DNA of 64,000 nt from Octopus vulgaris. Lineage: Eukaryota. This document shows positions 50,201 to 53,200 of the stretch, piece after piece (within the stretch, counting starts at the first letter, position 1; every line of letters starts with the position of its first letter). Made by a program: the position numbers and the translations under genes. A model generated the notes under the pieces. The model made no database searches, had not been told where the DNA came from, and worked only from the letters and a program-made list of their open reading frames with translations. Location: NCBI GenBank assembly GCA_951406725.2, contig OX597815.1, positions 143,220,001 to 143,284,000 of the forward strand, given 5' to 3'.

Positions 50201-53200
50201 CAGTTAAATCTCTAAATGTCTTAGTGAATTTAAACTCAGTACAATTGAATATATTGCTGCTTTGGTGGGCGTAGCTAGACGTAGACGCGATAGAGTTAAA
50301 TGTTTGGTGGACGTAGACACAATACAGTTAGGTGTCTTAGTGTAGACTGAAATAGTAAAGTTAACTATCTGCTACTTTGGTAAACGTAGGCACTTCATAT
50401 ATCACAAAATTCAAAACACCGACCCCTCAGGCGTTTTATGTAATAATATTTCACTCGGCTACTTACATATCCTGGAGTTTCAATAAGCCATGATATACAC
50501 TACATGATATGTATAATATGGTATACACTCCAAGAAAATAGTGTCAACTATTTGGCTTTATATGACGTTTTTCCTACTACTATATAGAGAGGTTAACCTG
50601 ATTCCATTAATATATTTCTTTTGTAATCGACTGAGGATAATACTACTTATGTAACAAACTATTACGTAACTACTTGAGACGTACGAATTAAACGCATTTG
50701 AAATATTAATAACTAGTTATGTGACAATTGTCTAATTGTGTGTGTGTGTGTGTGTGTGTGTGTGCTAGATAGATAGATAGATAGATAGATAGATAGATAG
50801 ATAGATAGATAGATAGATAGATAGATAGATAGATAGATAAACGCAAAACAGATTTTTAGAAAACGACAATACGTATATATATATATATATATATATATAT
50901 ACATAGTGTGCATTTAAACACATAAGAGGTATCCATCATAGGATACCTGGAACGCTAGAAGGAATAGCCAAAATCCAAACCACTACTAGGGATAAATTTC
51001 GAAGGGAATGAAAAATAAAAATATTTAACATCTATCTCTTGGGCCATGGTTTCTGATTTTATATTAGCATATAAAATAATTTACTAGTATAAAGTCAGAA
51101 ACCATAGTGCAGGAGATGGTAAATGCTTTTATTTTTTCATTCCCTTCGAAATGTATCCCTAATAGTGGTTTGCAGATTAGTTACGATTCAGTTCAGTCTA
51201 TTATCACTGGTTAATTCCAAGCACTGCTTTAAATAGCGGAAGTGAGCTAGAACGTTAAAACTTAGTACCAATGCACAACAGAGTTCAAAGTCAATCTGTA
51301 CCAAACGGCTTCACTCTGCGTTCTTTAGCTTCGTTTCTTTGGCGACAGTCCGGATACTTATTGATCAGACCACGTATATATATAATACATATAGTTGTTT
51401 GTGTGTGTGCGCGCGCGCGTGTTTGTGTGTGTGTGTTTCTGTGTGTCTTTCAACATATAGATAACGCAACACAAGACTTTAAAAAAAGACTTTCACTTTG
51501 AACAATTCATGAAGGTATGCGCATGACTAACAAATATTTTTACTGGTAGCGTAACAACGTGTAACGACATAACGTCGTTCATTTAGTCACACTTTTTTGA
51601 CAACGGTGAGATTGTATAACCATGACGAGCGTTTATGTCTCTCTCTAATGTATATAGCAAATTTATTTCGTTTACGAATGCAGTAACAGCTAAAATTTTG
51701 GCGTGTACCCCATTGTGAACTATAGTTCTCTATGTATTTCATTTACAGTTCCGTGTTCCATATTTTTTCTGAACAGCAATCTAATTGATCTGTCATCTGT
51801 TTCATCAATCTTTTTCTGTTTTTTCTGCCATTTATTTCACCTGACATATATTCTTCACTTGTCATCTATTTCATCAGTCATCCGTCTACGAACAATTAAT
51901 TCAATACCAGCAGGAGATTGGTCACCATTTAAAATCAACTACTATGATTTTTTTGTACAAAACAATGCCAATCTTTAGTGAAAATAAAACTGTTGTTGCT
52001 ATGATGATGATGATGATGATGATGATGATGATGATGATGATGATGACGATGACGATGACGATGACGACGACGACGACGACGACGACGACGACGACGACGA
52101 CGACGACGGCGGCGGCGGCGGCGGCGTAGATTGGTGGAGAGGAGAAAAAATGGTGGAAGAGGAGTGTAAGTAAGAGGACGAGGTGTTGAAATGAAAGAGG
52201 AGGTAAAGATCGTTAGTAACTGTTTTTTTTTGTTTTTTTTTTTTTGGTGCTTTTCTTTTCCACGTTGCAGAACTATAGAATCGTCCAAACATTACCGAAC
52301 GGGCAGTCAAAGGTTTACTATCGTCAAGCATCTGTACAAATCTGGGATACGGCTGGAATGGAAAGGTGCCCCTGTTTGTATATAATTATAAACAAGTATT
52401 CATTTATGTATATGTGAGTGTGGGTGTGTGTATGTATATCTATATATCCATATATGTGTGTTCATGACAAATATATTATATCATATTTTGTGTGTATATA
52501 TATATATATATTATATTATATTATATTATATTATATTATATTATATTATATTATATTATATTAAATTATATTATATTATATATTATATTCGTATATATGG
52601 GAAACAGTTTTTCATTCATGCATGTTTCCTTAAGTACGACACTATGTTCAACCCTTATCTTTCTTATATTAGATTTCTTTTCTATGTTCTTATTAGCATT
52701 ATTCAGTCGGTTAGGAACAGAAGAGTTCCTAAATCCACATCCGATATTTCCAGACCTTCTCTACCTCATTTTTAACAACTGGGTATATTTTTCGTTTGTA
52801 TTGGTTGATTACGTGCATTTTCAGTCAAAAGTTTTTTTTAACCCTTAGCATCATGAACTATTAGTCACATGTTGATTTATTTAACCGTAATAATTTTATC
52901 ATTTCATGTCAGTAGCCACATATCAATTTTCTGGTTGTATGTGTTTGCGTATTAATTTTGACATGAATATGGTTTCCGTAATTTCTATGCTATTCCTATG
53001 TGGGATTTTATAAGATATATGAATATTCTCCTGAAATATTGTCTTGTAGTGTGTGGTCTAATGCTGTGCAATTGCTCTATATTGCAAGTGCACAATGAGC
53101 TTACATAATAGACTAATACAACATTCAATACAGACACGAAATAAATCTATTCTTGGAAATGACGTTGTGAATATCTGGAAACGTCTAATGTGGATTTAGG

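Follow-up and report, generated by a model that had tools for sequence, protein, structure and literature searches.

A tandem pair of Rab27-like octopod GTPase genes that encode methionine at the position of the switch-II glutamine

Does a Rab gene of Octopus vulgaris whose reading frame has methionine in place of the catalytic switch-II glutamine encode a genuine protein, from which Rab does it descend, and would that protein be held in the GTP-bound state, as was suggested when it was first described as a Rab27-like, possibly naturally GTP-locked paralogue? The window, by which we mean the whole 64,000 nucleotide stretch of DNA analyzed (G000:C2:143220001-143284000), contains on its + strand a five-exon Rab gene at positions 47148-57003, here called gene A, whose 237 amino acid open reading frame, read from the window's letters, is uninterrupted and whose four introns all have GT..AG borders (Table 1). 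The G1 (GDASVGKT), switch-I threonine, G4 (NKCD) and G5 (ETSA) boxes and a C-terminal CCTN are all present, and this agrees with the original reading of WDTAGME in an otherwise intact frame. P0121, a protein model from O. sinensis whose last 237 residues are those of gene A, matches the Pfam Ras family with E = 1.8e-36; the protein thus has a Ras-family G domain with G1, G2, G4 and G5 in place, and Met stands where the Rab motif WDTAGQE has Gln. Exon 3, which encodes this residue, reads NYRIVQTLPNGQSKVYYRQASVQIWDTAGME(R) at 52271-52365. The interswitch insert noted at first is indeed there and is 3 residues longer than that of the canonical Rab27 of the same genome (exons of 95 and 86 nt, respectively). 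XCCXX is listed among the Rab C-terminal prenylation classes in the available part of PMC5902227, and gene A's NCCTN end fits this geranylgeranylation class, so that prenylation is predicted.

Table 1. Features of gene A in the window (window positions).
Feature	Position	Strand	Remarks
Likely 5'-UTR exon, 3' end	44975..45004	+	Loose end of spliced X6 contig matches 44975-45003 at 93%; donor GT at 45005
Exon 1 (first coding)	47116..47235	+	Start ATG 47148, coding 47148-47235; junction 47235/48116 in X6 and X7 contigs
Exon 2	48116..48222	+	107 nt; P-loop GDASVGKT, switch I TFAPTIGIDF
Exon 3	52271..52365	+	95 nt; Rab27-type interswitch insert, G3/switch II WDTAGME
ATG (Met) at the position of Rab27 Gln78 / Ras Gln61	52358..52360	+	X2 spliced contig has 0 differences
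Exon 4	55343..55570	+	228 nt; rest of switch II (F88Y, D91Q, M93R), Y122P/C123V region, G4 NKCD
Exon 5, coding part	56808..57003	+	G5 ETSA, hypervariable tail, stop TGA; X6 and X7 join exon 4 to exon 5
Cys-Cys in exon 5	56989-56994	+	XCCXX-type prenylation motif (class per PMC5902227)
3' UTR	57004..57400	+	X6 contig extends past 57400

The last base of exon 1 is the first base of the G1 glycine codon (a phase-1 intron), and 47116 is inferred to be its acceptor-side edge from the AG that precedes it; about 20 letters of the X6 contig that lie between the likely 5'-UTR exon and exon 1 are unplaced. An upstream ATG at 47116 opens a 16-codon frame (47116-47166) that is out of frame with the main start of gene A and overlaps it; the same ATG is in frame in P0121, which has 11 additional residues, and the X6 and X7 contigs carry one or two additional bases at 47141-47142. 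These differences of frame and length indicate that the leader of gene A varies between lineages. Because exon 1 is open upstream of its ATG, a large EF-hand Rab of the RASEF/CRACR2A type with further upstream coding exons was considered, and it was rejected since the orthologous models start at or near 47148; two loci, L004 and L006, which are putatively RASEF-like by their motifs, match just the first 39-41 residues of exon 4, which also argues against an EF-hand Rab. About 150 bases upstream of exon 3, at 52001-52125, lies a trinucleotide run that passes from GAT to GAC to GGC.

The reality of the Met codon was examined with contigs from 5 of 24 public sequencing runs, 18 of which we guess to be RNA and none of which is recorded as such. 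In X6 and X7, the contigs leave out exactly the four introns of gene A and run on into its 3' UTR, the X2 contig skips intron 3, and X1 contributes an exon-4 piece only; contig depth is only about 3 in X1 and X2 and cannot rank expression. Four contigs (X2, X6, X7 and X13) cover the codon, and the loose ends of X6, X7 and X13 carry on into exons 2 and 4. X2 shows no other letter across the codon. X6, X7 and X13 differ from exon 3 at 3, 2 and 2 bases, of which 2, 1 and 1, respectively, are listed elsewhere in the exon, so one difference remains unlisted in each, which is not enough for a Gln codon, and Gln can be read from none of the four. It had been noted that ATG is two changes from CAG, which is arithmetically right, but the canonical octopus Rab27 uses CAA, which is three changes away. 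Gene A is transcribed and spliced, and its Met is genuine. Sequencing error or a private variant is ruled out by these contigs and by Met in the proteins of other species (below), and RNA editing to Gln by the two non-A-to-G changes that ATG would require; minor editing of ATG to a Val codon is possible, as rare variants are dropped by contigs. A processed retrocopy was rejected as the origin of the spliced contigs, since a degenerate search for WDTAGME in this genome finds exactly two sites (control, 0), both in intron-containing genes.

The second of these sites belongs to a neighboring gene. A genome search with exon 4 of gene A found a 61% identical exon 31 kb downstream, part of a five-exon paralogue, here called B, that lies at C2:143293191-143309770, starts 16 kb past the stop codon of gene A, has canonical splice sites and translates exactly to the database protein P0004. 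Its G3 box is WDTAGMER, and although A and B are only 45% identical overall, WDTAGMERF is common to both. With two such diverged copies both having Met, a single origin is simplest, and the change probably arose before A and B separated. Judging from the divergence of exon 3, gene conversion is an unlikely source of the common Met. The B protein ends in KCSCI, which falls outside the motifs listed in the available part of PMC5902227, and the Argonauta paralogue B (P0003) ends in KCTPCS without a double-cysteine motif and may be singly prenylated. The canonical Rab27 of this genome lies elsewhere, at G000:C19:52194360-52215138, and is about 41% identical to gene A. A 360 amino acid database model named 'Rab-27B-like' (P0001) joins exons 1-4 of A (window 47148-55570) through an extra small exon to exons 2-4 of B, with the second part at G000:C2:143286155-143311811. 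It is probably a wrong fusion of the two genes by annotation, because in the X6 and X7 contigs exon 4 of A is followed by the fifth exon of the same gene. For paralogue B of O. bimaculoides the database has P0268, a truncated record that lacks the G3 exon, bears the source name 'SOCS box domain-containing', and has a start that matches the intron after exon 3 (G000:C2:143305073-143305141).

Several comparisons place the pair with Rab27. When gene A was searched against the PDB, the 14 best matches were all Rab27 (E = 2.6e-40), followed by Rab8A at 1.4e-28, and in a Foldseek search with its AlphaFold model (pTM 0.74, termini with pLDDT <50) Rab27 structures took the top 12 ranks, narrowly above Rab8. 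The tree conclusions are drawn from careful trees of 20 and 18 rows, in which the Met group joins Rab27 with support of 100/98 and 100/100; a set of 45 rows was run as a quick tree only, and 25 of the 70 candidate rows were left out as redundant, chimeric, partial or very divergent. AU tests reject the union of the Met group with Rab3 (p = 0.008), Rab37 (p = 0.033) and Rab8/10 (p = 0.026). Two of the tree rows are presumably Rab3-like, as labelled by a motif. In the best tree the long Met branch, whose stem amounts to 2.5-2.8 changes per column, stands beside all canonical Rab27s, where support is weak (60/90), and its union with cephalopod Rab27 is not rejected (p = 0.26). Descent from Rab27 is supported independently of the trees by common introns: A, B and the canonical octopus Rab27 have all four intron positions and phases in common and have identical 107- and 228-nt exons, and octopus Rab3 departs from gene A in position or phase at each of the three exon ends compared. 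We conclude from these sequence comparisons that A and B are Rab27-derived duplicates by descent. The predicted assignment to a Rab27 duplicate is thus borne out, as is its fast evolution, in the long stem; the intron equivalence that had been proposed from human RAB27A holds at all four sites, here with the canonical octopus Rab27 as comparator.

How widely is the Met kept? It is present in A/B sequences under four species labels, including proteins labelled O. bimaculoides (P0002, 94% identical to A), O. sinensis (P0121 and P0004) and Argonauta hians (P0003); the O. sinensis proteins are identical to those of this genome over their shared length and so lend little independent support. Among 121 proteins with 123 G3 motifs, Met occurs in six, and all six are octopod A/B sequences. 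Neither a non-octopod member nor an Argonauta copy of A was found in our protein searches, which covered among others the best 120 of 322 matches and the best 150 listed; these searches were word-limited or clustered at 50%, and members in squid, cuttlefish or nautilus could be missed by them. Since 88 columns are invariant among the four A/B proteins, the invariance of Met is not exceptional by itself. Gene A and P0002 differ at 15 of 237 residues, and over exons 2-4 the X7 contig has 15 base differences from gene A, counted as 6 replacement and 9 silent, which gives a rough dN/dS of about 0.17 (Fisher p = 0.001) on the assumptions that X7 encodes a P0002-like protein (all 10 of the listed replacement codons fit) and that each replacement took one base. 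The Met pair is apparently kept under purifying selection. Paralogue B of this genome and that of Argonauta are 74% identical, and the canonical Rab27s of octopus and squid are 75% identical. The split between octopus and Argonauta is younger than that between octopus and squid, so B evolves faster than canonical Rab27.

The Met does not stand alone. Among 16 canonical Rab27s, 99 columns are conserved in 15 or more sequences, and the residue is different at 42 of these columns in A and at 35 in B; for the N-terminal columns this depends on the alignment. S18A and G19S alter the P-loop of both proteins, which means that the active site has changed in two elements together, the P-loop and the switch-II Gln; the P-loop changes could move hydrolysis either up or down. 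Y6, F88 (to Y), M93, Y122 and C123 are lost from both proteins and K11 and D91 from A as well, and F46 and W73 of the triad are kept. According to PMC13632578, in the portion available, K11, D91, M93, Y122 and C123 form the lining or the borders of the effector 'WF pocket' or are in contact with SLP2-A, and a similar portion of PMC5902227 attributes the melanophilin specificity of Rab27 to CDR1 and switch-2 residues. By residue comparison, then, the conserved Rab27 effector surface (N-terminal YDY region, switch II and WF pocket) appears not to be preserved in A or B, in keeping with the altered effector surfaces that had been anticipated.

What would these changes do to the nucleotide state? 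Our preferred reading, to which we give slightly better than an even chance, is that A and B are a prenylated, slow-cycling, mostly GTP-bound Rab27 offshoot that is uncoupled from the parental regulators and effectors. Met would be unable to position the attacking water, which would lower intrinsic hydrolysis; in RAB27A, the Q78L change is said to stop intrinsic hydrolysis (PMC13632578, as excerpted), which favors this step. According to excerpts of PMC10511049, most Rab27 is bound to GTP, its exchange is high and its GTPase activity is low, and since spontaneous exchange is already high and activity low in the parent, the copies could load GTP without the DENN/MADD exchange factor. The GAP and GEF of Rab27 are given as EPI64/TBC1D10A and DENN/MADD, respectively, in the parts of PMC10511049 and PMC12495445 available, and, by analogy with Rab35, loss of the Gln may also weaken turn-off by a TBC1D10/EPI64-type GAP: mutation of the Rab35 Gln greatly reduces both TBC1D10A-stimulated hydrolysis and DENND1 exchange (PMC3919270, in part). 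The rewritten effector face would then stop an always-on copy from competing for Rab27 effectors, A and B might act as membrane tags that recruit partners other than those of ordinary Rab27, and they would have a task of their own on the vesicles or granules of some restricted cell type.

'GTP-locked' in the strict sense is an overstatement. The catalytic Gln comes in trans from the TBC GAP, Rabs respond differently to loss of their own Gln (PMC3919270, from the part available), and such a loss can even block DENN-type activation. Rab25 was offered as a precedent, and it does have a natural Leu at this site, but it is reported to retain GTPase activity (PMC3039820, from an excerpt). Also against the preferred reading, the same portion of PMC3919270 reports that Gln mutation changes the basal hydrolysis of Rab1 and Rab35 less than about 1.5-fold, and that in Rab5 it cuts basal hydrolysis and spares the GAP-stimulated reaction. 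Loss of the Gln is in addition common in divergent Rab-like proteins, which counts against it as well: 26 of 153 motif matches in 146 divergent Rab-like representatives have another residue at the switch-II site, at least one of them spurious and none of them Met. Much of this evidence would suit a normally cycling switch in which Met lowers at most the basal rate, a TBC GAP gives both Gln and Arg in trans, and A and B cycle like other Rabs, as is reported for Rab25. The Rab5-RUTBC3 reaction, unaffected by Gln mutation (PMC3919270, in part), and the other G boxes and remaining switch II of gene A, which are intact, fit such a switch; TBC1D10A, the GAP of Rab27 itself, needed the substrate Gln on Rab35 (PMC3919270 and PMC10511049, both from excerpts), and this, with the Q78L result, leads us to regard normal cycling as possible but rather unlikely.

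If loss of the Gln instead blocks exchange by DENN/MADD, A and B would be largely inactive, GDP-state proteins that serve as decoys or scaffolds. Rab35 Q67A does not respond to DENND1 and proves inactive instead of dominant-active (PMC3919270), and the Rab27 GEF is likewise a DENN protein (PMC12495445). Yet the intrinsic exchange of Rab27 is high, part of its activation occurs without Rab3GEP, GDP-mimicking Rab27 mutants are unstable (all PMC10511049), and Rab27B Q78L serves as a GTP-bound form (PMC12495445); on these points, drawn from partial views of the three papers, a GEF-refractory state seems improbable. A further reading is that gene A has no function by itself, being a duplicate in decay or encoding just the first half of a two-GTPase protein, as the A-to-B linkage in P0001 and the shallow X1 and X2 contigs might suggest. 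This reading is very improbable and already largely refuted by the intact frame conserved in O. bimaculoides with low dN/dS, by the X6 and X7 contigs that continue from exon 4 into A's own exon 5, stop and 3' UTR, by separate A and B proteins in the records of other species, and by the first and last exons that B has for itself, whose splice sites are canonical.

A bolder extension of the mostly GTP-bound reading, which we hold to be unlikely, is that A and B are regulator-independent, permanently GTP-loaded Rab27 offshoots with effectors of their own. They would label a kind of secretory or pigment organelle peculiar to octopods, and their control would lie in expression and turnover rather than in a GEF/GAP cycle.

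The database names of A and B are automatic and Rab-27-like, and no publication on the pair or its Met was found among the open-access papers searched. Loss of the switch-II Gln is already known from the Leu of Rab25, so the surprise is moderate. Switch-II Gln mutants are a standard 'always-on' tool in Rab biology. Their effect varies by Rab (PMC3919270, in part), and the two Met genes together with their intact parent would make a clean three-way comparison for the role of this Gln in the Rab27 lineage. If they prove tissue-restricted, A and B would be candidate markers of an octopod-specific vesicle pathway, and a by-product of the analysis is that the public gene model P0001 is apparently a wrong fusion. 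In the rest of the window, the same peptides occur in frames of both strands at about 3980-4700 (for example, +3981 and +4067 with -4691, and +4216 with -4540), which points to an inverted repeat of several hundred bases with short internal tandem units. The frames at 15290-16302, 59473-59712, 5510-5809 and 39555-40121 resemble decayed LINE and Tc1/mariner pieces. Apart from gene A, five frames of the window were searched against Pfam, all without a match.

Among known systems, gene A is closest in sequence and fold to the Rab27 subfamily (RAB27A/B; PDB 2f7s, 2zet and 3bc1; squid BAG81978.1), with which A and B share one clade at 100/100, the interswitch insert and C-terminal cysteines, and with the canonical octopus Rab27 they further share the four intron positions and the two exons of identical length. 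They differ from Rab27 in Gln78Met, in the P-loop pair S18A and G19S, in the lost YDY motif, and in F88Y, D91Q (A only), M93R/K/N, Y122P and the loss of C123, and A ends in CCTN where Rab27 has a CXC tail. Rab25, of the Rab11 subfamily (WDTAGLE), resembles them as a trafficking-Rab duplicate with a natural hydrophobic swap of the switch-II Gln, but its residue is Leu, its subfamily is another, its epithelial expression is known and its GTPase activity is reported to be retained (PMC3039820, from an excerpt). The engineered Rab27 Q78L is like A and B in site and in having a hydrophobic side chain, and it is described as locked with respect to intrinsic hydrolysis (PMC13632578, as excerpted); its effector face, however, is still that of Rab27, so it works through the parental effectors, whereas much of this face is lost in A and B.
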